Source: Clostridiales bacterium UBA1779 (GTDB lineage: Bacteria > Bacillota > Clostridia > Oscillospirales > CAG-272). Taken from it: a stretch of 43,949 nt of DNA. The notes beneath the pieces are model-generated. The model saw only the letters and a program-made list of their open reading frames with translations. It was not told the DNA's origin and did not search any database. Within the stretch, counting starts at the first letter, position 1. Every line of letters starts with the position of its first letter. The translations under genes and the position numbers were made by a program. The stretch is taken from NCBI GenBank assembly GCA_002314565.1, contig DCGL01000010.1:1-43949 (forward strand), given 5' to 3'. Shown here one piece after another: positions 8,342 through 25,691 of the stretch.

Positions 8342-9055
8342 ATGCCGATTCCAACCCCGCATATCTCCGCAAAAGCCGGAGATTTTGCCAAAACCGTCAT
8401 TATGCCGGGAGACCCCCTGCGTTCAAAATTCATAGCCGAGCATTTCTTTGAGAATGCCGTCCTTGTTAACAACGTAAGAGGCGTTCAGGGATACACCGGC
8501 TACTACAAGGGAAAGAGAGTGTCGGTTATGGCCTCCGGCATGGGACAGCCTGCCATAGGCATATACTCATACGAGCTTTTCAACTTTTATGACGTTTCAT
8601 CAATAATTCGTACGGGCTCCTGCGGAAGCTTCTCAAAGGATTTGCACGTACGCGACATCATTCTGGCACAGGCCTCCTGCACTAACGGAAATTATGCAGC
8701 CCAGTACTGCCTGCCCGGAACCTATGCGCCTATCGCCGATTTCGGTATGTTGCGTGCAGCCGCCGACGAATGCGAAAAGAAGGGCATCCGTTACGGTGTC
8801 GGCAACATCTTCTCATCCGATATGTTCTACGACGATGCCGCTTCCGGTATGGATTGGGCAAAGATGGGGGTTCTCGGCGTGGAAATGGAAAGCGCCGCCC
8901 TGTACTGCAACGCAGCAAGAGCCGGGAAAAAGGCACTTACAATCTGCACCGTCAGCGATTCGTTCATTTATCCGGAAGAGAATACGACGGCCGAAGAACG
9001 TCAGAACAGCTTCACCGATATGATGGAGATTGCTCTGGAAATTGCCGAGGCTTAA
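8342..9055 (+). CDS. deoD: Purine nucleoside phosphorylase, DeoD type
   Basis: N-terminus MPIPTPHISAKAGDFAKTVIMPGDPLR and GVEMESAAL are typical of hexameric PNP. Confidence 0.93.
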   Translation: MPIPTPHISAKAGDFAKTVIMPGDPLRSKFIAEHFFENAVLVNNVRGVQGYTGYYKGKRVSVMASGMGQPAIGIYSYELFNFYDVSSIIRTGSCGSFSKDLHVRDIILAQASCTNGNYAAQYCLPGTYAPIADFGMLRAAADECEKKGIRYGVGNIFSSDMFYDDAASGMDWAKMGVLGVEMESAALYCNAARAGKKALTICTVSDSFIYPEENTTAEERQNSFTDMMEIALEIAEA

Positions 9056-9163
9056 CGGATACAGCATACTTTGTTCCGGAACCCCGGCGTAAGTCAGGGC
9101 TGCTTTGGAACGGATACCTGCGTCAGCTGTGCTGGCGCTTCACAAATTTACTGTAATATAAAA

Positions 9164-10756
9164 ATGAAAAGAGTATTTGTTATCGTACTTGACAGCTTCG
9201 GTGTCGGGGAAGCACCGGACGCTTACAAATGGGGCGATGAGGGCTCAAATACCCTGGGGGCTATCAGAAATCATCCGAATTTCGACTGTCCCAACTTAAA
9301 GCGCCTCGGTTTGTTCAATATTGACGGCGTTGGCGGGGGTGTTGAATATCCTCTTGCAAGCTATTGCCGCCTTGAAGAAATTTCCAGCGGCAAGGACACG
9401 ACCACCGGTCACTGGGAAATAGCCGGACTTGTGTCGGAACAGCCGTTCCCGACGTATCCTGACGGCTTTCCCGCGGACGTCCTTGACGAATTTACCCGTC
9501 TTACCGGTCGCGGTGTTCTGTGCAATCTGCCGTATTCGGGTACGGAGGTCATAAAAGACTATGGACGTGAGCACGTTGAAACGGGGAAGCTGATAGTATA
9601 TACCTCAGCGGACAGCGTTTTTCAGATTGCGGCTCACGAAGACGTGGTTCCGGTCGACGAGCTTTACCGCTATTGCGAGCTGGCGCGCAAGATGCTTCAG
9701 GGGAAGCACGGCGTCGGCCGCGTGATTGCCCGTCCGTTTACAGGGGAATGGCCGTATACGCGCACTCCGCGCCGCCACGACTTTTCTCTGGTACCGCCGA
9801 AAACTACTATGCTGGACAGCCTGTCTGCTTCCGGCTACGACGTTGTGACCGTCGGAAAAATCTACGATATTTTTGCCGGAAAGGGAATATCCCCTGATGA
9901 ATGCCGACGTACGCAGAACAACGCGGAAGGTATGAAGCTGACCTCAGAGCTCGCAGACCGTGACTTCAACGGTCTGTGCTTCGTAAACCTCGTTGATTTC
10001 GATATGACCTACGGTCACCGAAACGACGTTCCCGGCTACGCCCGTGCGGCTGCCGAGTTTGATCGCTGGCTCGGAACGTTTCTTCCGAAGCTCGGGAAAG
10101 AAGACTGCTTGCTTATCACGGCCGATCACGGCTGCGACCCGGCAACCCCTTCAACCGATCATTCCAGAGAATATATTCCTATGTTGTTATACGGACCTTC
10201 CGTGAAGTCCGGGGTCAACCTCGGAACCAGACGCGGATTCTCGGACATTTCGGCAACGGTGCTTGACCTGCTCGGCTGTGACAGGCTTGACACGGCGGGA
10301 AACAGCTTTGCTTCATCAGTAATTGAGAAAAAGCTTGACCCACGCGTTCAGGATAAGCTTATGGATGCTGCTGTTGAAGCCCGAAGAAAAGCATATTGCC
10401 CGTATTCCGGTTTTTCCGTCGGGGCGGCGCTTATGACTGCTTCGGGAAAAATTTATACAGGCTGCAATATCGAAAACGCCGCCTTCGGTCCCGGAAACTG
10501 CGCAGAACGCACTGCAATATTCAAAGCTGTGAGCGAGGGGCACAGAAGCTTCCGCGCAATTGCAATCTGCGGCGGCAAAGCAGGCTTTGAAGCCGAAGAA
10601 ATTTGCGCCCCCTGCGGCGTGTGCCGTCAGGTTATGGCAGAATTCTGCGGTCCTGATTTTACCGTAATTCTCGGTAATTCCGAAAAATCAAAGCAATACC
10701 GTTTTGACGAAATACTGCCTCTGGCCTTTGGACCTGAAAATCTCGGTAAAAAATAA
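9164..10756 (+). CDS. deoB: Phosphopentomutase fused in frame to cytidine deaminase
   Basis: MKRVFVIVLDSFGVGEAPDA and ITADHGCDP are DeoB-like. From about nt 10330 the same frame encodes a full Cdd domain (YCPYSGFSVGAAL, CNIENAAF, CAERTAIFKA, PCGVCRQVMAEF) with no intervening stop. Confidence 0.85.
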   Translation: MKRVFVIVLDSFGVGEAPDAYKWGDEGSNTLGAIRNHPNFDCPNLKRLGLFNIDGVGGGVEYPLASYCRLEEISSGKDTTTGHWEIAGLVSEQPFPTYPDGFPADVLDEFTRLTGRGVLCNLPYSGTEVIKDYGREHVETGKLIVYTSADSVFQIAAHEDVVPVDELYRYCELARKMLQGKHGVGRVIARPFTGEWPYTRTPRRHDFSLVPPKTTMLDSLSASGYDVVTVGKIYDIFAGKGISPDECRRTQNNAEGMKLTSELADRDFNGLCFVNLVDFDMTYGHRNDVPGYARAAAEFDRWLGTFLPKLGKEDCLLITADHGCDPATPSTDHSREYIPMLLYGPSVKSGVNLGTRRGFSDISATVLDLLGCDRLDTAGNSFASSVIEKKLDPRVQDKLMDAAVEARRKAYCPYSGFSVGAALMTASGKIYTGCNIENAAFGPGNCAERTAIFKAVSEGHRSFRAIAICGGKAGFEAEEICAPCGVCRQVMAEFCGPDFTVILGNSEKSKQYRFDEILPLAFGPENLGKK

Positions 10757-10896: not shown

Positions 10897-12099
10897 ATGA
10901 GTACAAACGAGCGTAAATTCGGAACAATTTCCAGAGGCGTACGCTGCCCCATCATCAGAGAGGGTGACGACCTTTCCGTAATCATCACGGACAGTCTTCT
11001 CGAAGCTGCAAAGTCAGAGAACGTTGAATTCCGTGACAGAGACGTCGTTGCCATGACTGAATCCATCGTAGCCCGTGCACAGGGAAACTATGCCACGGTC
11101 GACGACATCGCCGCTGACGTAAAGGCAAAGCTCGGCGGGGAAACCGTCGGCGTAATTTTCCCGATTCTTTCCCGTAACCGCTTCGCAATCTGCCTGCGCG
11201 GTATTGCCAGAGGCGCAAAGAAAATCGTTCTTATGTTCAGCTATCCTTCCGACGAGGTCGGAAATGCTCTGGTCAGCCTCGACAAAATCGATGCTGCCGG
11301 CGTAAATCCCTACTCAGACGTTCTGGATATCAAAAAGTACCGTGAACTCTTCGGCTATGAAAAGCACGAATTCACCGGTGTTGATTACGTCCAGTATTAC
11401 ACGGACCTCATTCACGAAGAGGGAGCCGAGGTCGAAATCGTTTTTGCAAACCAGGCAAAGACAATTCTGAATTATACAAAGAACGTCATCAACTGCGATA
11501 TTCACACCAGAGCCCGCACCAAGAGAATTCTGAAAGCCGCAGGAGCCGAAAGAGTATTCGGCCTTGACGATATAATGAATGCCCCCGTAAACGGCTCGGG
11601 CTGCAACGAAAAGTACGGACTGCTCGGTTCAAACAAGTCCACAGAGGACAAGGTAAAGCTTTTCCCGAGAGAATGCAAGGATCTCGTTCTTGCCATTCAG
11701 GAGAACCTGCTTGAAAAGACCGGTAAACACGTTGAGGTTATGGTCTATGGCGACGGTGCCTTCAAGGATCCCCAGGGAAAAATCTGGGAGCTTGCAGACC
11801 CGGTCGTATCTCCCGCCTTCACTGACGGTCTTATCGGAACACCGAACGAACTCAAACTCAAGTACCTTGCCGATAACGATTACAAGGATCTTTCCGGCGA
11901 AGCTCTCAGAAAGGCCATTTCAGAGTCTATTAAAAACAAGGCCGGCAACTTGAAGGGAACGATGGCAACACAGGGAACCACTCCGAGACAGCTTACCGAC
12001 CTCATCGGTTCGCTCTGCGACCTGACCTCAGGTTCCGGCGACAAGGGAACCCCCGTCGTCTGGATTCAGGGCTATTTCGACAACTACACCACAGACTGA
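10897..12099 (+). CDS. CofE-like (F420-0:gamma-glutamyl ligase family) protein of unknown substrate
   Basis: The N-terminus FGTISRGVRCPIIREGDDL and the 400-aa length match my recollection of the Firmicutes proteins annotated as F420 ligase-like. SD GGAAGGA upstream. Confidence 0.45.
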   Translation: MSTNERKFGTISRGVRCPIIREGDDLSVIITDSLLEAAKSENVEFRDRDVVAMTESIVARAQGNYATVDDIAADVKAKLGGETVGVIFPILSRNRFAICLRGIARGAKKIVLMFSYPSDEVGNALVSLDKIDAAGVNPYSDVLDIKKYRELFGYEKHEFTGVDYVQYYTDLIHEEGAEVEIVFANQAKTILNYTKNVINCDIHTRARTKRILKAAGAERVFGLDDIMNAPVNGSGCNEKYGLLGSNKSTEDKVKLFPRECKDLVLAIQENLLEKTGKHVEVMVYGDGAFKDPQGKIWELADPVVSPAFTDGLIGTPNELKLKYLADNDYKDLSGEALRKAISESIKNKAGNLKGTMATQGTTPRQLTDLIGSLCDLTSGSGDKGTPVVWIQGYFDNYTTD

Positions 12100-12366: not shown

Positions 12367-12395
12367 TTGACAAAAGGATTGGCTTGTGATAAAAT
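12367..12395 (+). promoter_or_regulatory. Sigma-70-type promoter of the cohesin/dockerin cluster
   Basis: TTGACA, 17-nt spacer, TGaTAAAAT (extended -10), preceded by a T-run/A-run UP-like element at 12340-12366. Confidence 0.6.
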
Positions 12396-12454: not shown

Positions 12455-15400
12455 ATGAAAAGAACTCTCTCTAAGGTACTTTCATGCATTCTTGCTGTCA
12501 TGATGGTCCTGAGCGTCGTTTCAGTCGGTGCTTTCGCAGCCACAGGCTGTGGTGAAGGCAAGCACGTCAGCGACGGCAAGGTCTATGGCACAGATTCAGG
12601 AAAGTACTGCTATGACTACAGCTTTGTCACTTATAAGTGCGTAGTATGTAATCAGTATTATGCTGTTTACACCCGTGCTCTCAATGCTGCATGTCATTCC
12701 GCTTCCGATGACACGGTCATCAAACACGCAAAAGTAAACGCTACTTGCAAGGCTCTCGGAACTGAAGAGTACTACGAGTGCACAGTCTGCGGATGGAAGT
12801 CCACAGACGGAACAGCCGCCGGCATGTTCACTGATATGAAGACAGTTGAAATTGCCAAGGTTACTGCTCACAATTACGTTGCCGATCTCAAATCCATTGT
12901 TGCTCCTAAGATTAGCGGCACAACATACACCAAGGGTTCAATGAACTATGTCTGCTCTATCTGCGGTGACTCAAAGAAGATTACAATCACCTGCAATCAT
13001 GAGAATGACTATGATTCTACCAATAAGGAATACAAGTACAGCACAACTTATTGGACAAAGCTCACAAATTCTGATACTGTTACAAACTATGTTAAAGGAA
13101 GCTGCACAGCCAACGGATATCAGAAGTGGCAGTGCAAAGAGTGCGGACTTGTCATCACTCAGACTCTGACCAAGGCTCACGAACAGGATGACACAACATA
13201 CAAGAAGGTTAATGCAACTTGCACAACCGAAGGTTACGAATCTTATGTATGCTCAGTATGTAAAGTTACAGTTACAACAACACTCGCAAAGCTTAATCAT
13301 AAGGATGGATCAAAATCCAAACTTACAGAAACCAAAGCAACCTGCACTAAAAACTCACAGTGGTATTGCTCAATTTGTAAAACCACATATGATAATAAGG
13401 TCCTTAACGGCGTTGACAATATGCTCAATCATCCCGGCAAGGTTGCTCTTACAGATTCCAACGTGAAATCAGCAGCCTGCGGCAAGGATATCAAGTATTA
13501 TGCTGCATACTATTGCGCAACCTGCGCCAAGAATAAACAGAACGTTACTGTTGCCGGTGCTGTAATCCCTGAGTATAAAGTAGACGATAAGGTTCAGACC
13601 TATGGTTTCGTATGGCTTGAGGAAGCAACCGGTACAACTCACAACTTCACATACAAGGTATGGGAAGGAACAGTCGGTTCAACAACACTCAAGAAGACAA
13701 CCTGCGTTGCTGACGGTTACTACGTACTTCAGTGCACAAAGTGCGAAAAGTATGCTGATGCCAACGGAAACGCTGCCGCTTTAGCCTCTGCAAAGGTTTA
13801 CACCGAAGCTAAGTCTGATGATTATCACAACAAGTTTGAAGTCAGCATCATTATTGCTGCAAACTGCTCCAACCCCGGTGAAAGACAGATTGCCTGCACA
13901 TACTGCAGCAAGCTCGACGGTACTCGTGAAGTTATTCCCGCTACCGGTCATAAGGGCAACGGAACAGTAAGAACCATCAGAGAAGCTACCTGCCTCGAAA
14001 CAGGTGCTGAGGTTCAGTCCTGCTCAGTATGTAAGCAGGAATTCATCGTATCCCTCAAGGCTCTCAGCCACGATTATTCCCTGACTTATAAGAAGGCTTC
14101 CGCAACCTGCACAACAGTTGGTTACTCAGCCGATACAAAGTACTGCTCACGTTGCGGTACACTTCAGACTCCCGGCAACCTGATTGCCGCCAAGGATCAT
14201 ACTTATGTATATGTTGATCATGTACAGGGTAAGGACGAATCTGCCGCCAAGACCTGCACAACAAAGGGATTCACAGTAAATTCCGGTGCTGCTTCCGGCA
14301 AGGGCTGGTACTGCAATGTTAAGAATTGCGGTGCTACCGACGGAACAATAGTTACAGCTTGTGTAAACAGCCTGGGACACGACTCAGCAAAAGCTTATGA
14401 AAACGTATCAGGCAAAACCGCTTGCGGAACTGTAAACTATGTAACATATATCTGCTCAAGATGCGGATTTAACGGTGGTTCCAATAAGATTGTTAAGTTC
14501 AAGCAGAACGCTGCTCACACTCTCGTAGCTGTTGCCGCCACAACAGGCAGCTCTTCCTACTACGTAGAGGATCTCGACAGAACAGTAGTAATTGGTTCCG
14601 GTGCTCAGGCTAAGGTTGATGCTTCTTGCGCAACCATCGGCTTCACCATCGTAAAGTGCTCAACTTGCGGCAACTACTACTCATCCAACAAGGTCGCCAA
14701 GCTTGCTCACGTAAACAAGGCCGGCCAGTCATTCAACGAAGTTGTTGATTCAACTGCTATCCTTTGCGTTGAAGGCGTTACAGATTATGTCTGCGTAAAT
14801 GCCTGCTGCAAGGAAAACAAGACTCAGAAGAACTATGCCGAGTTCGTAAAGCATGGTGCAGAAGCTGTTAAGACTGCTCAGTATGCTCCTACTTGCACAA
14901 CTCCCGGTTATGAAGTTCTCGCTTATGAGTGCTGCCATACATACTTCACCAATAAGATTGCCGAGCAGATTTCTCACTCAATGGTTGATAATGTCGTCGC
15001 CGGCGTCGTAGTTTCCAAGTCCTGCTCCGCTTGCGGCTACACTGTAGTCCTTAAGGCTGCTGAACTTGAGTATGTATACGAAATCAAGGCCAATGCCGTT
15101 AATAACGGTAAGCTTGCCGTAACAGTATCCGTTAAGGCTACAAGCTCCGCTATCAGCGTCTGGTCCGTTTCCGATAAGTTCAACGTACCTGCCGGCTTCA
15201 CCTTTGATAAGGTTGTTGCTGCCAATGGTATCTTCGATGTTGTATCCGCTGTTTACGGTCAGGATACTCACGTAGAAAAGACCAAGGTCGGTGAGATGAA
15301 CAACGTTGTCTACTACGAAGACAAGACCATCGTAGATGACAGATACGTAACATTCGTAGCTCGTAACTCCAAGCTCGCTAATGTAACAGTTAACGGAACT

Positions 15401-15799
15401 GTAGAACTTGCTACAATTTACTTCAACATTGCCGATGATGCTGTTGCATACGGCACTTCCTCAACAGAGTTTGACTTTGTTGTAAAGCCTGCTTACAAGA
15501 CATCCAAGGCTGTTTCCGCCGCCACTGCTGCCGGTAAGGAAATCTCCATCACCGCTGATGATTACTCCGGCGTTGCATTCAAGGTAACTGTATACAACCT
15601 CGGTGATATCAACCATGACGGTTATGTAAATATCCTTGACTTCGCTAAGGTTCTCGCTGCATTCGATGCATTCGCCGATGCTGCCGATATGCCCGAAGCT
15701 GACATCAACTGCGATGGCGTTATCGACGCTGCCGACGTTGCTCTCATTGAAAAGTTCGTAACAGGTGCCATCACCTACGAACAGATGATTGCCGGTTAA
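12455..15799 (+). CDS. Secreted Cys-repeat protein with a cohesin-like domain and a C-terminal dockerin
   Basis: Signal peptide ends at VGAFA|AT. About 16-17 modules of C-x(7-11)-C-x2-C ... H cover aa 30-855. A cohesin-like beta domain covers aa about 858-1040. A two-segment dockerin follows (GDINHDGYVNILDF ... ADINCDGVIDAADV). SD AAGGAG upstream. Confidence 0.8.
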   Translation: MKRTLSKVLSCILAVMMVLSVVSVGAFAATGCGEGKHVSDGKVYGTDSGKYCYDYSFVTYKCVVCNQYYAVYTRALNAACHSASDDTVIKHAKVNATCKALGTEEYYECTVCGWKSTDGTAAGMFTDMKTVEIAKVTAHNYVADLKSIVAPKISGTTYTKGSMNYVCSICGDSKKITITCNHENDYDSTNKEYKYSTTYWTKLTNSDTVTNYVKGSCTANGYQKWQCKECGLVITQTLTKAHEQDDTTYKKVNATCTTEGYESYVCSVCKVTVTTTLAKLNHKDGSKSKLTETKATCTKNSQWYCSICKTTYDNKVLNGVDNMLNHPGKVALTDSNVKSAACGKDIKYYAAYYCATCAKNKQNVTVAGAVIPEYKVDDKVQTYGFVWLEEATGTTHNFTYKVWEGTVGSTTLKKTTCVADGYYVLQCTKCEKYADANGNAAALASAKVYTEAKSDDYHNKFEVSIIIAANCSNPGERQIACTYCSKLDGTREVIPATGHKGNGTVRTIREATCLETGAEVQSCSVCKQEFIVSLKALSHDYSLTYKKASATCTTVGYSADTKYCSRCGTLQTPGNLIAAKDHTYVYVDHVQGKDESAAKTCTTKGFTVNSGAASGKGWYCNVKNCGATDGTIVTACVNSLGHDSAKAYENVSGKTACGTVNYVTYICSRCGFNGGSNKIVKFKQNAAHTLVAVAATTGSSSYYVEDLDRTVVIGSGAQAKVDASCATIGFTIVKCSTCGNYYSSNKVAKLAHVNKAGQSFNEVVDSTAILCVEGVTDYVCVNACCKENKTQKNYAEFVKHGAEAVKTAQYAPTCTTPGYEVLAYECCHTYFTNKIAEQISHSMVDNVVAGVVVSKSCSACGYTVVLKAAELEYVYEIKANAVNNGKLAVTVSVKATSSAISVWSVSDKFNVPAGFTFDKVVAANGIFDVVSAVYGQDTHVEKTKVGEMNNVVYYEDKTIVDDRYVTFVARNSKLANVTVNGTVELATIYFNIADDAVAYGTSSTEFDFVVKPAYKTSKAVSAATAAGKEISITADDYSGVAFKVTVYNLGDINHDGYVNILDFAKVLAAFDAFADAADMPEADINCDGVIDAADVALIEKFVTGAITYEQMIAG

Positions 15800-15835: not shown

Positions 15836-16594
15836 ATGCGTACAACTAAAATTGTTTCGCTCATCATGGTTGCTGTACTGATTTGCTTCGCTTCTGTCCC
15901 TGCATTCGCAGAGGATGTACTGTTTACAACAACAGCTGCTCCTTACGATGTACTGACAGCTAACGCAGCAACAATATCCCTCGTTCTCGCAGAAGAGGCT
16001 TCGGCCTCTTCCGCGAAGGCGGGCGAAACTGTTGAAATCAGCGTAGCAGCCGAGCAGGGTATCCCCGGTCTTTATGCTATGGAATTTACTGTTGGCTTTG
16101 ATGCTGCAAAGTTCGCTTTCGTTGCCTGCAACGCCTGCGATGCTCTTAATGCTGACGGCGTAAAAGTAAATTACAAAGCTACTGCAAACAGCGTTATCGT
16201 CAGAGTAAACGCTTACGAAACCGTAAATCAGGGTCTTTACACTGCTGACAAGACAGAACTTGTCAAAATCACTCTCACTGCTCTCAAGGATATGGATAAG
16301 TTTGACGGTGTTGTTACACTGAAGGGCGGAAACCAGGCCTCTAAGAACGGTGATGTCGAAGTAATAGCCAAGAGCATTATCTCTGTTGTTTACGGTGACG
16401 TAAATGCTGACGGTAATGTGGGTGATATCTTCGACCTTCTCACACTTAAAAAATATTTGTCTGATTCCACTGTAGCCATCAATGTTGCAAATGCTGACGT
16501 TACCGCCGATGGATCAGTTGATGTTACGGATCTTGTCAGACTTAAAAAGTTCGTTGCCGGTGTAACCGGAACCGTACTTGGTCCCAAAGCATAA
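15836..16594 (+). CDS. Secreted cohesin-dockerin adaptor protein
   Basis: Signal peptide ends at VPAFA|ED. Cohesin-like domain includes GETVEISVAAEQGIPGLYAMEFTVGFDAAKFAFV. Dockerin is YGDVNADGNVGDIFDL ... ADVTADGSVDVTDLVRLKKFV. Confidence 0.8.
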   Translation: MRTTKIVSLIMVAVLICFASVPAFAEDVLFTTTAAPYDVLTANAATISLVLAEEASASSAKAGETVEISVAAEQGIPGLYAMEFTVGFDAAKFAFVACNACDALNADGVKVNYKATANSVIVRVNAYETVNQGLYTADKTELVKITLTALKDMDKFDGVVTLKGGNQASKNGDVEVIAKSIISVVYGDVNADGNVGDIFDLLTLKKYLSDSTVAINVANADVTADGSVDVTDLVRLKKFVAGVTGTVLGPKA

Positions 16595-16614: not shown

Positions 16615-17577
16615 ATGAAGAAGATTTTTGCTATTATCCTCTCTGTAATGATGGTTGCTTCACTTGCAATTATTGCTTCTGCTGAAACACCTCTTACAGC
16701 CACAGCACCTGCAACAACAGTTGCTTCTGCTGATTTCACTACAATCACTGCTACCCCCGACAAGACAAGCGTCTCTGCCAAGGGTGACAAGATTGTTGTT
16801 AACTACGTTGTTTCCAACAATGCCGGTATCATGGTTCTTACCATGGGCCGCATTTCCACAGTTGTTCCTACAGGTCTTACTCTCGTTGACGAGAAGGACG
16901 GCGGTCTGTTTGGCGCTCCTACTACCGGTGCAAATAATGTTCTTTACCTTATGGATGCCGATAGCAAGGCCAACGGAATTCTTTACACTGCTACGTTTGA
17001 AGTAGCTGTCGATGTCAAGGAAGGCGATACATTCACTTTCTCAGTACCGACAATTGTTGCTGCAAACTACAATGAGCAGGCTGTTCAGGTAAACTGTGTT
17101 AACGCTACAGTATCAAAGGCTGCTTGCACTCATGCCAACACGGAAGTTCGCGGCAAGGTCAATGCCAGCTGCACACAGTCCGGTTATACCGGTGATACTT
17201 ATTGCAAGGATTGCGGCAAGAAGATAGCTGAAGGTACAGTTATCGGTCAGTTCCTCCACACCGGCGGAACTGCCACCTGCACCAAGAAGGCTGTCTGCAC
17301 TCTTTGCAAGCAGGAGTATGGTAATGTAAATGCTGATAACCATCCCGGAACAAAGGTCGTCAACGTCAAGGCTGCAACCTCCACAACTGAAGGTTACACC
17401 GGTGACACAGTCTGCACAGACTGCGGAAAGACACTTAAGAAGGGCGAAGCTATCGCTAAGATTATCAATCCCCCCACAAACGATAATTCCATCGTAACCA
17501 TTGCTGTCATTGCCGTTCTCGGTATTGCTGCAATCGCCGGTGCTGCTGTCGTTTACAATAAGAGAAGAGAGTTCTGA
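16615..17577 (+). CDS. Membrane-anchored cohesin protein with Cys-repeat modules
   Basis: Signal peptide, a cohesin-like domain, three modules of the same C...CxxC...H type (SCTQSGYTGDTYCKDCG...H), and a C-terminal TM helix plus KRREF stop-transfer. No LPXTG motif and no dockerin. Confidence 0.75.
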   Translation: MKKIFAIILSVMMVASLAIIASAETPLTATAPATTVASADFTTITATPDKTSVSAKGDKIVVNYVVSNNAGIMVLTMGRISTVVPTGLTLVDEKDGGLFGAPTTGANNVLYLMDADSKANGILYTATFEVAVDVKEGDTFTFSVPTIVAANYNEQAVQVNCVNATVSKAACTHANTEVRGKVNASCTQSGYTGDTYCKDCGKKIAEGTVIGQFLHTGGTATCTKKAVCTLCKQEYGNVNADNHPGTKVVNVKAATSTTEGYTGDTVCTDCGKTLKKGEAIAKIINPPTNDNSIVTIAVIAVLGIAAIAGAAVVYNKRREF

Positions 17578-17651: not shown

Positions 17652-17678
17652 GCTCACTTGAGAAGTGAGCCTTTTTTT
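17652..17678 (+). terminator. Intrinsic terminator after the cohesin cluster
   Basis: GCTCACTT gag AAGTGAGC followed by CTTTTTTT. It is preceded by a 12-bp hairpin at 17602-17628. Confidence 0.8.
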
Positions 17679-18348: not shown

Positions 18349-19317
18349 ATGTGTACGAATAATACGCTCCAGCCTGAAAATAATGATTTTCATCATATTC
18401 CGGTGCTTCTGAATGAAGTAATTGACGGACTTGATATTAAGCCTGACGGGATATACGTAGACGGAACTGCCGGTGGTGCAGGTCATTCCTCTGAAATTGC
18501 AAAAAGGCTGTCAGATAAAGGAAGATTGATTGCGATTGACCAGGACGAAACGGCAATATATACTGCAACAGTGAGACTGTCTGTTTTCGGCAGCAGGGCA
18601 ACTGTTATAAAGTCAAATTTTGTCAATATGAAAAAGGTATGCAATGACCTCGGAATTGATAAAATTGACGGGTTCCTCCTGGATCTCGGTGTATCGTCAT
18701 ATCAACTTGATACACCAGAGAGAGGTTTTTCATATAACTATGACGCCCCTCTGTCAATGAAAATGGATCAGTCTGCCGGACTTGATGCGTATTTCGTAGT
18801 TAATTCTTATTCAAAAGAAGATTTGTGCCGTATTCTGACAGATTACGGTGAAGAGAAGTTCGCATATAGAATTGCGGACAGAATATGCCGGGAGCGTGAG
18901 ATCAGACCGATCGAAACCACTCTCGGACTTTGTGATATTATAAAAAAAGCACTTCCCGACGGGGGGAAGAGTCAGAATCATAATCCGTGTATGCGTACCT
19001 TTCAGGCTATACGTATTGAAGTAAATCATGAAATTGATATAATTCCCCAAGCACTGACGGATGCCGTTGACTTGCTGAAACGCGGCGGAAGAGGCTGTGT
19101 TATTACTTTTCACTCGGTAGAAGACAGAGCTGTAAAGGAAGGATTTAAAAATCTGATGGGCGGATGTATCTGTCCGAGAAACCTTCCCGTATGCGTATGC
19201 GGAAGAAAACCGCTGATTGAGTCAGTAACGAAGAAGCCGGTAGTGCCTTCGGAAGAAGAACTGAAAATCAATTCGCGCAGTCACAGTGCAAAATTGAGAA
19301 TTGTTGAAAAACTGTAA
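18349..19317 (+). CDS. rsmH: 16S rRNA (cytosine1402-N4)-methyltransferase
   Basis: HIPVLLNEV, DGTAGGAGHS, DLGVSSYQLD and SFHSVEDR motifs. Confidence 0.95.
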   Translation: MCTNNTLQPENNDFHHIPVLLNEVIDGLDIKPDGIYVDGTAGGAGHSSEIAKRLSDKGRLIAIDQDETAIYTATVRLSVFGSRATVIKSNFVNMKKVCNDLGIDKIDGFLLDLGVSSYQLDTPERGFSYNYDAPLSMKMDQSAGLDAYFVVNSYSKEDLCRILTDYGEEKFAYRIADRICREREIRPIETTLGLCDIIKKALPDGGKSQNHNPCMRTFQAIRIEVNHEIDIIPQALTDAVDLLKRGGRGCVITFHSVEDRAVKEGFKNLMGGCICPRNLPVCVCGRKPLIESVTKKPVVPSEEELKINSRSHSAKLRIVEKL

Positions 19318-23238: not shown

Positions 23239-24699
23239 ATGTTCGTAAATCTTGCAAAAAATGATATATCCGTGGAAGAATTCGCAAAATTATGCGCGGG
23301 TTCACTTACCCGGGGCGGTGCAGACGGCCTCCGGGTTTGTTCCGTTTGTACGGACTCAAGAGAAATTGTCCCCGGATGTGTTTTTGCCGCGATCCGCGGA
23401 GCGAAAGCCGACGGACACAATTACCTTGGAACCGCTCTCGAAAAGGGGGCTTCCTGTGTGCTTGTCGAGCACGTCGTTCCCGAATATGCCGGAAAAATCA
23501 ATCAGGTATGCGTTGACGAGACAGTTGCTGCCATCGGACGTTTTGCACTGAATTACAGAGCGGAAAATCATCCCTGCACAGTTGCCGTCACCGGAAGTGT
23601 CGGCAAGACCACGGCAAAGGAAATGATTTCCTGCGTTCTTTCTTCGAAAAACTGCTATCACTCAAGAGGCAATTTCAACAGCATACTCGGAATGCCTATG
23701 TCAGTAATCTCGGAACCCTGCGGCTGCGGCTGCGCCGTCTACGAAATGGGACTTGAAGAGCGCGGTGAAATTTCCGCAATGTCACACATATCAAAACCCG
23801 ATATTGCCGTTATCACCAATGTGGGCTCCTCTCATCTCGAACATATCGGAAGCCGTGAAAAGCTTCTGTATGAAAAGCTTTCGGTCAGAGACGGACTTCG
23901 TCCCGGCGGGGCACTGATTCTCGATTTTATGCTTGCCCGCGAAGCAAAAGATCTGCTGGCGGATTCCGGGAACACAAATATCCTGACTTTTTCTCTGAGC
24001 GGTGAAAAAGGGGCTGATTACAGCGTCGTCAATCTGAAAGAGAACGGAACGGAACAGAGCTTTGACGTAATCTGTCCCGGAAGGATACTGAAAAATCTGA
24101 AAATAAACCTTTACGGCTGGCACAACGTTCAGGCTGCCCTCACAGCCTGCGCAGTTGCCGATGTTATGAAGCTCGGCGAAGACGAAATCAGGTCAGGTCT
24201 TGAGGCTTACAAGCCCGTATCGCTGCGTCAGGAGGTCTCGTCCATTGCAGGCGTAACAATTATCAACGACTGCTACAATGCCTCTCCCGAATCCATGAGG
24301 GCTGCCTGCGACGTCCTGTGCGGCAAGAGCCTTAATTGCTGCGGAAAACGCGTGGCAATACTCGGCGATATGCTTGAACTGGGAAGCGAATCGGAACGTA
24401 TGCATTATGAGGTAGGCAGATATTTTGCATCCCACGGACTTGACGCGCTTATCTGTTTCGGTCCCGAGTCACACAAATATGAGGAAGGCGCAGGAAGCGT
24501 TCTGATGGAAGATATGATTTTCTGCTTCCCGGACAAAACAAAGCCTGAACTTCCCGCTGAGAAAGCTTATGAACTTCTTTGCAGCGGTGACGCTGTACTG
24601 ATAAAAGCAAGCCGCGGTCTTGCAGCTGAGAGAATTACGGATATTCTCAGGAACCGTCTCGTGGGAACCGCAAAAACTGATGAAGGAGAAAAAAGATGA
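23239..24699 (+). CDS. murF: UDP-N-acetylmuramoyl-tripeptide--D-alanyl-D-alanine ligase
   Basis: Mur ligase P-loop VTGSVGKTTAKEM with MurF-type N- and C-domains. The stop overlaps the mraY start (ATGA). Confidence 0.93.
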   Translation: MFVNLAKNDISVEEFAKLCAGSLTRGGADGLRVCSVCTDSREIVPGCVFAAIRGAKADGHNYLGTALEKGASCVLVEHVVPEYAGKINQVCVDETVAAIGRFALNYRAENHPCTVAVTGSVGKTTAKEMISCVLSSKNCYHSRGNFNSILGMPMSVISEPCGCGCAVYEMGLEERGEISAMSHISKPDIAVITNVGSSHLEHIGSREKLLYEKLSVRDGLRPGGALILDFMLAREAKDLLADSGNTNILTFSLSGEKGADYSVVNLKENGTEQSFDVICPGRILKNLKINLYGWHNVQAALTACAVADVMKLGEDEIRSGLEAYKPVSLRQEVSSIAGVTIINDCYNASPESMRAACDVLCGKSLNCCGKRVAILGDMLELGSESERMHYEVGRYFASHGLDALICFGPESHKYEEGAGSVLMEDMIFCFPDKTKPELPAEKAYELLCSGDAVLIKASRGLAAERITDILRNRLVGTAKTDEGEKR

Positions 24700-25691
24700 C
24701 ACTTCCTATATTGTGCTTTTCAATTACAATCACCCTGTTTGCCTTTTTGTGCACCGTAATTCTTCTTCGTATGCTTATACCCGTACTTACAAGTCATAAA
24801 ATAGGGCAGAAAATTTATGATATCGGTCCACGCTGGCATAAGTCTAAGGAGGGAACTCCGATAATGGGCGGAGTGTCCTTTATCATACCTGTTGCCATAG
24901 CAGTTTTGTTCTTCACCCTTCTGTCCGGCCTCGGCGGCAAATTCAGAACCGAATCCACAAGCTTCGGCATTCTGCTTCTTGCACTTCCGAACGGTGCCAT
25001 CGGTTTTATAGATGATTATACAAAGCTGATAAAGAAACAGAACCAGGGACTCAAGGCCTGGCAGAAGCTCGTTCTGCAGCTTGCGGTATCGGGTGCCTTC
25101 GTAGCTTTCCTTGCCTTATCCGGTATGGTTAGCACGAAGCTGTACGTACCGTATTTCAAAGTTCGTGCGGATCTTGGAATTTTCTACTATATTTTCCTCG
25201 TTTTGTTCATTACCGGAACCGTGAATTCAGTGAATCTGACTGACGGTATTGACGGCCTCGCCGCCAGCGTGACTTCGTTTATTGCCCTCCTTTTCACCGT
25301 TTTCGCGGTAGTGAAGGGGAATATCGGACTCGCATCGGCCCCGGCTTCTCTGCTCGGCGGCTGTGCCGGGTTCCTGGTTTACAACACCTATCCCGCAAAG
25401 ATCTTTATGGGGGACACGGGATCGCTTTTCCTCGGCGGAATGGTCGCGGGACTTGCAATTGCCGTAAACAACCCATTGATTCTGCTCGTGTGCGGAATTA
25501 TCTACTATATTGAAGAACTGTCTGTAATTCTTCAGGTCGGTTATTTCAAACTGACACACGGAAAGCGCCTTTTCAAAATGGCACCCATTCACCATCATTT
25601 TGAAAAATGCGGATGGAGTGAACTGATGATAGTTGCAGTATTTTCAACAGTAACTCTTCTGTGCTGCGTACTCGCATGGTTCGGTCTGTAA
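24696..25691 (+). CDS. mraY: Phospho-N-acetylmuramoyl-pentapeptide transferase
   Basis: Ten-TM protein with NLTDGIDGLA, MGDTGSLFLGG and PIHHHFE motifs. SD GAAGGAG upstream. Confidence 0.96.
   Translation: MTLPILCFSITITLFAFLCTVILLRMLIPVLTSHKIGQKIYDIGPRWHKSKEGTPIMGGVSFIIPVAIAVLFFTLLSGLGGKFRTESTSFGILLLALPNGAIGFIDDYTKLIKKQNQGLKAWQKLVLQLAVSGAFVAFLALSGMVSTKLYVPYFKVRADLGIFYYIFLVLFITGTVNSVNLTDGIDGLAASVTSFIALLFTVFAVVKGNIGLASAPASLLGGCAGFLVYNTYPAKIFMGDTGSLFLGGMVAGLAIAVNNPLILLVCGIIYYIEELSVILQVGYFKLTHGKRLFKMAPIHHHFEKCGWSELMIVAVFSTVTLLCCVLAWFGL

Follow-up and report, generated by a model that had tools for sequence, protein, structure and literature searches.

Which residues of a secreted Cys/His repeat make up one metal site, and what is such a repeat for? 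The question is raised by a three-gene locus in the window, which is the whole 43,949-nt stretch of DNA that was analysed. The host is an uncultured gut-type Clostridia bacterium. In the product of the first gene, 829 aa form a tandem array. An earlier note, made from the sequence, had described this array as about 16 to 17 modules, possibly zinc-ribbon-like.

Layout of the locus and of the repeat arrays

Genes 1, 2 and 3 are separated by gaps of 36 and 20 nt. In protein 2, both the cohesin (35.6 bits against a Pfam cut-off of 24.1) and the dockerin (48.3 bits against 22.9) pass. Protein 3 itself has no Pfam Cohesin match; its full-length homologues P0123, P0129, P0135 and P0217 score above the cut-off across the N-terminal domain aligned with it. 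Protein 3 and these homologues share the order cohesin-like domain, array, transmembrane (TM) anchor. Given the Pfam dockerin and cohesin assignments, the promoter-like and terminator-like sites and the short intergenic gaps, the best explanation is that genes 1 to 3 most likely form one operon for a small cohesin–dockerin surface assembly. An identical protein 1 has been called on JGI contig 3300001598 EMG_10006361. No relatives of protein 1 were found at the locus level in GTDB genomes.

Table 1. Features of the three-gene locus, with positions in the window.
Feature	Position	Strand	Basis or detail
Promoter-like site upstream of gene 1	12367..12395	+	TTGACA, 17 nt spacer, TAAAAT, TG preceding the second hexamer; 11/12 consensus matches; consensus match only
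Gene 1: secreted 1114-aa protein (signal peptide, 17 Cys/His periods, orphan domain, type I dockerin)	12455..15799	+	
Sec-type signal peptide, protein 1 aa 1-28 (...VGAFA/A)	12455..12538	+	Read straight off the sequence
Array of 17 proposed metal-site periods, protein 1 aa 32-860	12548..15034	+	Ligand table, AF2 model of aa 455-588, shuffle test, homology to IgAse ZBD1
Orphan beta-rich 183-aa domain, protein 1 aa 866-1048, between array and dockerin	15050..15598	+	
Type I dockerin, protein 1 aa 1049-1101	15599..15757	+	Pfam PF00404, 31.3 bits against cut-off 22.9
Gene 2: secreted 252-aa adaptor (cohesin aa 57-166, type I dockerin aa 186-240)	15836..16594	+	Pfam PF00963, PF00404
Gene 3: membrane-anchored 320-aa protein (signal peptide, cohesin-like domain at about aa 35-165, three proposed metal-site periods, C-terminal TM helix with KRR stop)	16615..17577	+	
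Proposed three-site stalk of protein 3	17125..17424	+	Ligand table; knuckles aa 197/200, 228/231, 267/270
C-terminal TM anchor, protein 3 aa 293-314, then NKRREF	17491..17556	+	Read straight off the sequence
Terminator-like hairpin with T-run, 3' of gene 3, closing the three-gene unit	17652..17670	+	Consensus match only

We counted 17 Cys knuckles in protein 1, in agreement with the 16 to 17 modules first noted; the span then given (12545-15020) equates to aa 31-856. Fourteen knuckles are CxxC and three are variants (C620-x4-C625, C780-x3-C784 and C826-C827). Their first Cys residues are at aa 62, 109, 167, 227, 266, 305, 354, 427, 481, 523, 564, 620, 667, 735, 780, 826 and 857. Periods are 31-73 aa long (median about 47). 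Because of insertions, this range is wider than the 35-50 aa originally proposed. Between aa 29 and 870, every Cys (54/54) and every His (20/20) sits at or adjoining a repeat ligand position. The pattern C-x(6-12)-C-x2-C occurs 12 times; in 2000 shuffles of these residues it arose 1.4 times on average and never more than 7 times.

The protein 1 array opens with an N-cap, C32-x4-H37. Its last period (C857, C860) has neither the single Cys that normally precedes a knuckle (Cys1) nor a later His. One other unit has T157 in place of Cys1 and carries C180-x-H182 next to the following His. Some periods are irregular: the distance from His to Cys2, the first Cys of the knuckle, is 45-47 at sites 4 and 14, two candidate His are available at each of sites 2 and 12, and extra Cys occur at 80, 636 and 785. 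Hence, some sites may differ in build or be empty. No tandem repeat was found in the array at the DNA level. The copies are therefore old and diverged, and a recent DNA-level tandem-repeat origin was rejected.

The three further copies claimed for the third protein are also present (Table 1). Here, the N-cap is C171-x-H173, and both residues are invariant in a 5-sequence alignment (A2). In the last period Ser replaces Cys1 and no His follows. This unit and the T157 unit are the two that had been quoted as lacking a first Cys.

The orphan domain of protein 1 gave no Pfam match and no homologue at E<=1e-3 in a word-indexed search. Comparison with cohesins by phmmer or hhalign yielded nothing, and BLASTP against the protein 2 cohesin was negative. 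A single-sequence AF2 model of the domain reached pLDDT 32 and was unusable.

Assignment of ligands to sites

The original proposal was a self-contained zinc-ribbon-like finger in each 35-50-aa unit, with the unit's own three Cys and the following His binding one zinc. The motif is real and each period does supply four ligands. We compared this arrangement with an AlphaFold2 (AF2) model of protein 1 aa 455-588, which covers three consecutive periods (129-row alignment, pLDDT 91.5; AlphaFold2 models no metal). Each period has strands at positions 7-13, 21-27 and 33-40. Cys1 (residue 17) lies in the loop between strands 1 and 2. The CxxC (residues 27 and 30, Cys2 and Cys3) is at the other end of a 7-residue strand, which parts it from Cys1 and speaks against the single-unit finger. 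His45 follows strand 3 and is at the Cys1 end. The fixed spacing is also that from His to the next Cys2 (23 residues in 1077 of 1598 knuckles), whereas between Cys3 and the next His it ranges from 13 to 15.

The ends of arrays point the same way. In 35 non-redundant proteins, the last unit lacked both Cys1 and the next His in 25/40 arrays, compared with 1/517 internal units. An extra Cys or His was present no more than 6 aa before the first-unit His in 24/36 cases, compared with 47/507 internal units. In a larger set (180 proteins, 6,341 units) the figures were 142/595 against 13/5151 for the C-terminal cap and 86/441 against 59/5038 for an N-terminal cap Cys. For a single-unit finger these ends are awkward: terminal units retain His and CxxC without Cys1 and the next His, and first units hold a His and an extra Cys/His cap though no upstream partner would need that His.

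Loss of Cys1 within arrays is compensated. Where internal units lack Cys1, HxH, CxH or a similar motif comes next in 26/29 cases, compared with 27/516 where Cys1 is present (Fisher p = 1.6e-26). In the 180 proteins the corresponding counts were 155/324 and 220/5273 (p = 5e-105). Such compensation near the following His would be consistent with every model that assigns Cys1 and that His to one site, the single-unit finger included. Judged from these counts, units without Cys1 are either regular C-terminal array caps or have a substitute Cys or His beside the following His, as at C180-x-H182. The earlier reading of such units as degenerate, in ongoing repeat evolution, is thus not borne out.

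Exchange of Cys for His is normal for metal ligands and impossible for disulfides. Hence, a metal site is favoured. Secreted Cys-rich repeats are disulfide-bonded as a rule, and a CxxC is able to form a disulfide. Even so, it is most improbable that the repeat is an EGF-like Cys-rich extracellular module with disulfide-bonded or free Cys and no metal. An EGF-like module would have even, paired Cys and a dispensable His; here, three Cys per period accompany an invariant His, and the bridging Cys is interchangeable with His. Furthermore, the carriers of the module are gut and rumen anaerobes, with two candidate matches in Bacteroidota. PMC12237041 reports no disulfide in the experimental structures or predicted models of a homologous IgA protease, described below, despite its 24 Cys.

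Finally, we measured co-variation (MI-APC), leaving out columns that were close together or overlapped; the set comprised 1,764 double periods (Neff 1060, background sd 0.05). The residue after His (His+1) is coupled (0.24, 0.26) to the middle residue of the CxxC that lies downstream in its own unit, with values of about 0 for the previous knuckle. Similarly, Cys1+1 is coupled, at 0.136/0.096 and 0.112/0.082, to positions -1 and -3 relative to the next His, and not to its own His flank. The inter-period signal is modest, at about 2-3 sd.

Together, the AF2 topology, array-end rules, compensation and co-variation support a predicted site formed by Cys1 of unit i-1 with His, Cys2 and Cys3 of unit i. 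As statistics of sequence, these patterns fix which residues act together. The same four lines of evidence argue for metal (Zn) coordination rather than disulfides, as the earlier note had suspected, and against its placing of one unit's three Cys and the following His in a single site. The published models in PMC12237041 likewise put the sites of homologous domains at subdomain interfaces. No zinc-ribbon Pfam model reached threshold (best scores 14-18 bits against cut-offs of 24-34). We consider the single-unit finger very unlikely. For protein 3, the proposed inter-unit sites are {C171, H173, C197, C200}, {C186, H215, C228, C231} and {C222, H243, C267, C270}. In protein 1, {C471, H499, C523, C526} is one such proposed set.

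The bound ion could be iron or another metal in rubredoxin-like, redox-active sites. The habitat is anaerobic and iron-rich, and weak sub-threshold rubredoxin-type matches were seen. However, rubredoxin sites are Cys4, while Cys3His and Cys2His2 are the usual structural zinc sets, and the sites proposed here are Cys3His or Cys2His2. A separation of about 3.5 nm is also beyond the reach of electron hopping. Going by the ZBD1 length given in PMC12237041, the sites would lie one sheet, or about 3.5 nm, apart. A native metal other than zinc is highly improbable on these grounds.

Relationship to IgA protease domains and other systems

Single-sequence searches did not place the module. A search of PDB sequences gave nothing relevant, BLASTP of protein 3 alone against the IgA protease fragment was not significant, and Foldseek found no match in the PDB to the three-module model at E < 0.3. 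Against BFVD, Foldseek matched only two gut-virome proteins, both with the same module. The IgA protease was reached by family profile only. Briefly, the profile of alignment A1 (first row, protein 1 aa 455-588 from the window) matched the T. ramosa IgA protease sequence of PDB entry 9qa6 (9qa6_A; E = 1e-8) at chain residues 852-978 and 1102-1142. Comparison of the module with this region by hhalign gave 98.0% probability and E = 1.6e-13. On these profile matches, the module is homologous to ZBD1/ZBD2 (CTD2/CTD4) of the Thomasclavelia ramosa M64 IgA protease. Keyword literature searching gave no description of the module; the relevant papers surfaced through the PDB profile match.

Two papers from 2025 deal with this region. 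In PMC12237041 (Gomis-Ruth group) it is ZBD1/ZBD2: the subdomains are up-and-down sheets of three strands, zinc sites (2His+2Cys or 3Cys+1His) are predicted where subdomains meet, and three subdomains measure about 110 Å. [quoted passage not shown] Both describe the zinc sites as predicted or pending validation, and both found no structural homologue of the fold. The ZBDs were probably not modelled in 9qa6, with cryo-EM fitting covering other domains.

The module is therefore not wholly new: a predicted zinc-bridged, rod-like spacer fold came to notice in 2025, in a single gut IgA protease. The claim that it belongs to no named family stands for curated Pfam and NCBIfam families, but not with respect to the predicted ZBD1/ZBD2 (CTD2/CTD4) of PMC12237041 and PMC12415215. 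No well-characterised family, which the earlier note had said would count against it, was matched, because ZBD1/ZBD2 are themselves only predicted.

There are several points of likeness to the IgA protease domains. Both have three-stranded up-and-down sheets with no beta-sandwich core, seen here in the model of three consecutive periods. Both have predicted Cys/His sites at sheet interfaces, in Cys2His2 (HxH) and Cys3His variants, assigned here from sequence. An extended rod with a spacer or 'periscope' role by a cell anchor is proposed in both. The arrangements differ. The protease has 3 + 2 sites, mostly HxH, between a catalytic head and a sortase anchor. In contrast, protein 1 would have 17 mostly Cys3His sites in one chain, no catalytic head and dockerin attachment, and protein 3 a 3-site stalk under a cohesin. 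The end-cap rules, compensation rules and family size described here do not appear in the excerpts of PMC12237041 or PMC12415215.

Comparison with a classical zinc ribbon (TFIIS C-terminal domain, Zn_Beta_Ribbon clan) is also informative. The predicted three-stranded antiparallel sheet, CxxC knuckle at a hairpin tip and tetrahedral structural site are shared. However, a zinc ribbon draws its four ligands from two knuckles in one domain, whereas each sheet here has one CxxC knuckle, and a His together with a Cys of the adjacent sheet would complete the site. The repeats are also extracellular and tandem, unlike the classical domain. The description as zinc-ribbon-like is not supported. CHY/CTCHY zinc fingers (Pirh2-type) have several zinc sites with interleaved ligands and short beta-hairpins; they are intracellular, eukaryote-centred and do not form open-ended tandem arrays. 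Matches of family members to zf-CHY scored 19-28 bits, below the cut-off of 31.3, and hence indicate resemblance only. In PMC12237041, ZBD1 subdomain I is said to resemble the TFIIS C-terminal domain distantly.

Among surface rods, PMC12415215 compares the CTD fold with the G5-E repeats of SasG and Aap ('periscope proteins'). These share tandem single-layer, core-less beta-sheets, a long rod off a Gram-positive surface and a link to zinc. There is no sequence relationship between G5-E repeats and the module. In Aap, zinc bridges two protomers via surface His and acidic residues and drives dimerisation, whereas the sites predicted here are intramolecular and fully coordinated by Cys/His. In region II of the Marinomonas primoryensis adhesin, Ca2+ at inter-repeat junctions stiffens tandem Ig-like repeats into a rod (PMC4083281). 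A metal at the junction that stiffens a rod and holds a functional end off the cell is what we propose here. The adhesin, from an aerobic Gram-negative, uses 104-aa Ig-like sandwiches with Ca2+ bound via acidic residues; in the module, the predicted Cys/His sites sit on sheets of about 40 aa, and the carriers are anaerobes with reduced thiols.

A predicted metal-stapled stalk and its distribution

Taking all observations jointly, the best explanation is probably a stiff stalk, metal-stapled by Cys/His between sheets, in a cohesin–dockerin surface assembly. In the repeat, small antiparallel beta-sheets of three strands, almost without hydrophobic core, would be chained together, with each period of about 40-45 aa making one sheet. 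Each sheet junction would be closed by a tetrahedral Cys3His site, most probably holding Zn2+. To this site, sheet i would contribute the His that opens it and the CxxC from the loop joining its strands 2 and 3, while sheet i-1 would contribute the single Cys from the loop joining its strands 1 and 2. Consecutive sites would then interleave along the sequence and give an extended, stiff rod. An array would start with an extra Cys or His 1-6 residues ahead of its first His, as at C32-x4-H37 of protein 1 and C171-x-H173 of protein 3, and end with a unit missing the bridging Cys and the next His.

In protein 3, the three sites would make a short stalk from membrane anchor to cohesin. Protein 1 would be a 17-site rod of roughly 40-60 nm, an estimate that follows from the approximately 37 Å per subdomain reported for IgAse ZBD1. 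The C-terminal dockerin of protein 1 would attach it to a cohesin, either that of protein 2 or that of protein 3. The identity and occupancy of the metal, the rigidity and the cohesin–dockerin pairing are features that we infer. In the IgA protease, SAXS indicated that the ZBD1, BB8 and ZBD2 domains are joined by flexible linkers (PMC12237041). Hence, rigidity would apply within arrays and not necessarily between domains.

In other family members, arrays lie between heads (LRR_5, CAP, transglutaminase-like, Flg_new) and anchors (SLH, C-terminal TM, dockerin). A position between a cell anchor and a functional domain would place the array in the stalk or 'periscope' functional class. Alternatively, the metal-binding array might be more than an inert spacer and form the working part of protein 1: it could bind a ligand or cells through its surface, store or buffer metal at its 17 sites per chain, or switch its stiffness with the zinc supply. 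We found no recognisable head domain at the distal (N-terminal) end of protein 1, an oddity if the array is purely a spacer; besides the array and the dockerin there is just the orphan domain adjoining the dockerin. Family members also reach 7,583 aa and consist mostly of these units. However, Cys3His sites are typically high-affinity and structural, and the units occur in fusion with a wide range of unrelated heads and anchors. The H, C, C and C columns of alignment A1 are invariant or nearly so. Conserved positions are these ligands and one Gly only, and the mean column identity is 24%. Poorly conserved surface positions between the ligands fit a scaffold better than a binding site. Environmental-zinc regulation (PMC12415215) and protein binding (PMC12237041) have been raised as possibilities. 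On balance an array with such a working role is unlikely.

How common is the module? The earlier note regarded it as unusual for a Gram-positive surface protein. In our prevalence survey, the module profile matched 72,534 representative protein clusters. Pfam and NCBIfam scans of the three proteins, three-module segments and giant family members gave no model of the repeat above threshold, only sub-threshold generic zinc-knuckle matches. One 4,548-aa family protein has no Pfam match at all. By these profile counts, the module is very common rather than rare, yet without a curated family.

We tentatively extend this to a wider reading. Among the extracellular repeats of gut and rumen Clostridia that lack a curated family, the inter-sheet Cys/His staple could be one of the most abundant, with more than 70,000 clusters and arrays of more than 100 units, zinc- and redox-dependent surface stiffness, and a sizeable role as an extracellular zinc sink. 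Its grammar may be an N-cap, then a bridging Cys or local HxH, then a C-cap. Every junction would need a metal ion; hence, a large share of the surface proteins of these bacteria, cohesin–dockerin assemblies of the present type among them, would have a length and stiffness that depend on gut zinc and redox state.

If zinc is bound as predicted, this is a distinctive stalk design, in which thin, core-less single sheets are metal-stapled end to end. Such a design would be practical extracellularly only where thiols remain reduced, for example in anaerobic gut habitats. A repeat that dominates tens of thousands of unannotated surface proteins would then be accounted for, annotation could follow a rule for array boundaries and site counts, and the surface architecture of gut Clostridia would be linked to zinc supply. 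An experimental structure of the fold is explicitly left open by both 2025 IgA-protease papers (PMC12237041, PMC12415215). The three-site unit of protein 3, which is natural and has both caps present, would be a compact construct for the first one.

Organisation of the locus and the repeat

Three co-oriented genes, flanked by nucleoside-salvage genes and the mraZ-rsmH-PBP division cluster, encode proteins 1 to 3. In protein 1 (1114 aa), a Sec-type signal peptide precedes the Cys/His array, which is followed by a 183-aa domain and a type I dockerin (Pfam 31.3 bits; cut-off 22.9). Protein 2 (252 aa) consists of a cohesin and a dockerin, each exceeding its Pfam cut-off. Protein 3 (320 aa) begins with a signal peptide and an N-terminal domain; three Cys/His periods follow, then a transmembrane helix at the C terminus. 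Over the region aligning with its N-terminal domain, four full-length homologues pass the Pfam Cohesin cut-off. From this domain make-up, we infer that the unit encodes a small cohesin-dockerin surface assembly, with predicted pairing.

Coordinates of features in the window
Feature	Coordinates	Strand	Remark
Promoter-like site	12367-12395		Upstream of three-gene unit
Gene 1	12455-15799	+	Three-gene co-oriented unit
Gene 2	15836-16594	+	36-nt gap after gene 1
Gene 3	16615-17577	+	20-nt gap after gene 2
Terminator-like hairpin	17652-17670		Downstream of gene 3
Extra C80/H81	12692-12697		Protein 1
Extra C636	14360-14362		Protein 1
Extra C785	14807-14809		Protein 1
183-aa beta-rich domain	15050-15598		Protein 1 aa 866-1048, between array and dockerin
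Short variant period	17257-17307		Protein 3 aa 215-231
Purine nucleoside phosphorylase gene	8342-9055		Adjoins fusion ORF
Apparent fusion ORF	9071-10756		Phosphopentomutase-cytidine deaminase
Housekeeping singletons (examples)	8342-9052, 10897-12096, 18349-19314, 24696-25688		90%-identity clusters

Among the neighbouring genes, a single ORF apparently fuses phosphopentomutase (Metalloenzyme domain) to cytidine deaminase (dCMP_cyt_deam_1/2); JGI calls this gene at 530 aa. Housekeeping proteins of the window are the sole members of their 90%-identity clusters among ~15 billion proteins. Hence, the lineage of the source genome lacks close sequenced relatives. The repeat proteins have named relatives in Acutalibacteraceae, Lachnospiraceae and similar gut Clostridia.

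The repeat described in the earlier note is real. Protein 1 contains 17 Cys knuckles (mostly CxxC; Cys2 and Cys3) within aa 62-860. A lone Cys (Cys1) lies ~10 residues upstream of the knuckle in most periods, and there is one His per inter-knuckle interval. Between aa 29 and 870, all 54 Cys and all 20 His residues fit this scheme. The 12 occurrences of the motif are well beyond chance: 2000 shuffles gave 1.4 on average and never more than 7. The copies are old, as no tandem repeat exists at the DNA level.

A predicted metal site between periods

In an alignment of 129 diverse three-period segments headed by protein 1 aa 455-588, the columns of the His and the three Cys vary little or not at all, and few other columns are conserved. 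With this alignment, AlphaFold2 produced a confident model (pLDDT 91.5, also high across junctions). Each period forms a three-stranded sheet. Cys1 is in the loop between strands 1 and 2, while the CxxC is in the loop between strands 2 and 3. After strand 3, the chain is back at the Cys1 end and the next His follows. Hence, Cys1 and CxxC of one period, at opposite ends of a 7-residue strand, cannot share a metal. This disfavours the single-unit, zinc-ribbon-like site suggested earlier. Instead, the model suggests a site built from Cys1 of one period and the His, Cys2 and Cys3 of the next. The sites, and the identity and occupancy of any metal, are predictions.

Four independent sequence tests probed this proposal. 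First, spacing: in 1077 of 1598 knuckles, Cys2 comes 23 residues after the preceding His, and the distance from Cys3 to the next His varies (13-15). Second, array ends: Cys1 and the next His are both missing from the last unit of 25/40 arrays but from only 1/517 internal units. The first unit has an extra Cys or His up to 6 residues before its His in 24/36 cases, compared to 47/507. The array-end effect recurs among 6,341 units of 180 non-redundant proteins. Third, compensation: HxH or CxH follows 26 of the 29 internal units without Cys1, compared to 27/516 (p = 1.6e-26; p = 5e-105 in the larger set). Swapping Cys for His in this way is what metal ligands do, unlike disulfide partners. Fourth, co-variation (background sd 0.05): the position just after His is coupled to the middle of the CxxC downstream of it (0.24 and 0.26) but not to the upstream knuckle. 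For the position just after Cys1, coupling is to positions -1 and -3 relative to the next His (0.10-0.14), and there is none to its own His.

The window proteins conform to all these rules. The protein 1 array starts with C32-x4-H37. In its third period Thr replaces Cys1, and C180 precedes the next His (C180-x-H182). The last period (C857, C860) lacks both Cys1 and a subsequent His. Protein 3 starts with C171-x-H173, invariant among homologues, and ends with a unit having Ser for Cys1. Hence, units previously read as degenerate, and as ongoing repeat evolution, are caps rather than products of decay.

Several protein 1 periods are irregular. Extra Cys or His residues adjoin the regular ligands at sites 2 (C80/H81), 13 (C636) and 15 (C785). 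Long insertions precede sites 4, 8 and 14, where His and Cys2 are 31-47 residues apart. These junctions may be differently constructed or contain inserted hairpins. In one period of protein 3, H215-x6-C222-x5-C228-x2-C231, only 12 residues instead of the usual 23 separate His and Cys2; this short variant is kept in one homologue, P0123. Units fall into two sub-types (as in family members P0001 and P0005, among others, and in aa 186-200 and 256-270 of protein 3), which alternate in many proteins: H-x12-C-x9-C-x2-C, and H-x11-C-x10-C-x2-C, in which a G-Y-T-G-D motif is present and the linker to the next His is longer (14 residues). The His-to-Cys2 distance is 23 in either.

Predicted role of the array

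In protein 3, three sites lie between the membrane anchor and the cohesin, the position of a stalk. Other members place arrays between heads (LRR_5, CAP, transglutaminase-like, Flg_new) and anchors (SLH, TM, dockerin). A metal-stiffened spacer, comparable to Ig-like repeats rigidified by Ca2+ (PMC4083281), is the best-supported role. In protein 1, oddly, no recognisable domain lies at the distal end, and its sole other domain (aa 866-1048) matched nothing. Hence, its rod possibly has a function of its own. For aa 866-1048 there was no Pfam match, no homologue was detected in a word-limited search of a 5.8-billion-protein index, and the single-sequence model was unusable. From its position, the domain might be a very divergent cohesin or binding module.

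Relatives and spread of the module

Model scans found no Pfam or NCBIfam model covering the module, and Foldseek found no match to our model in the PDB. However, the family profile matches the sequence of PDB entry 9qa6, the Thomasclavelia ramosa IgA protease (E = 1e-8), and hhalign aligned the module with this region at 98% probability. The region is named ZBD1/ZBD2 in PMC12237041 (2025). That paper describes ZBD subdomains as three-stranded up-and-down sheets, three spanning ~110 A, with predicted zinc sites (2His+2Cys or 3Cys+1His) at their interfaces. In PMC12415215 (2025) the same region goes by CTD2/CTD4, and SAXS there shows isolated CTD2 to be a fully extended rod. Our independently derived inter-sheet sites agree with the IgA protease ZBD models. 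This agreement and the homology indicate that the window proteins are new members of a recently noticed, predicted fold.

At E <= 1e-3 the family numbers 72,534 representative clusters, and at E <= 1e-30 still 20,231; its proteins reach up to 7,583 aa. In keyword searches and in the text consulted of the two IgA protease papers, we found no account of this scale, of the cap and compensation grammar or of the module in cohesin-dockerin proteins; all three seem to be new.

Giant proteins made largely of the module, including P0241 (4,548 aa) and P0254 (7,583 aa), have dozens of three-unit stretches each. For P0241, nearly all module, there was no Pfam match at E <= 0.001. In P0242, long arrays occur together with three cohesins, which makes it a scaffoldin with the module as its stalk. 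A strict DNA pattern placed the module in at least 120 stretches of GTDB genomes and, among the matches listed, almost all are from gut or rumen Clostridia. Also among the matches listed, two (L004 and L037) are in Bacteroidota MAGs (Prevotella sp. and Bacteroidaceae bacterium); these could reflect transfer, contamination or chance. The same module occurs in BFVD entries A0A8S5QLF9 ('S-layer homology domain') and A0A8S5SUG5 ('leucine rich repeat protein') from human-gut virome contigs; these are possibly surface proteins carried by phages, or else bacterial DNA that ended up in viral bins.
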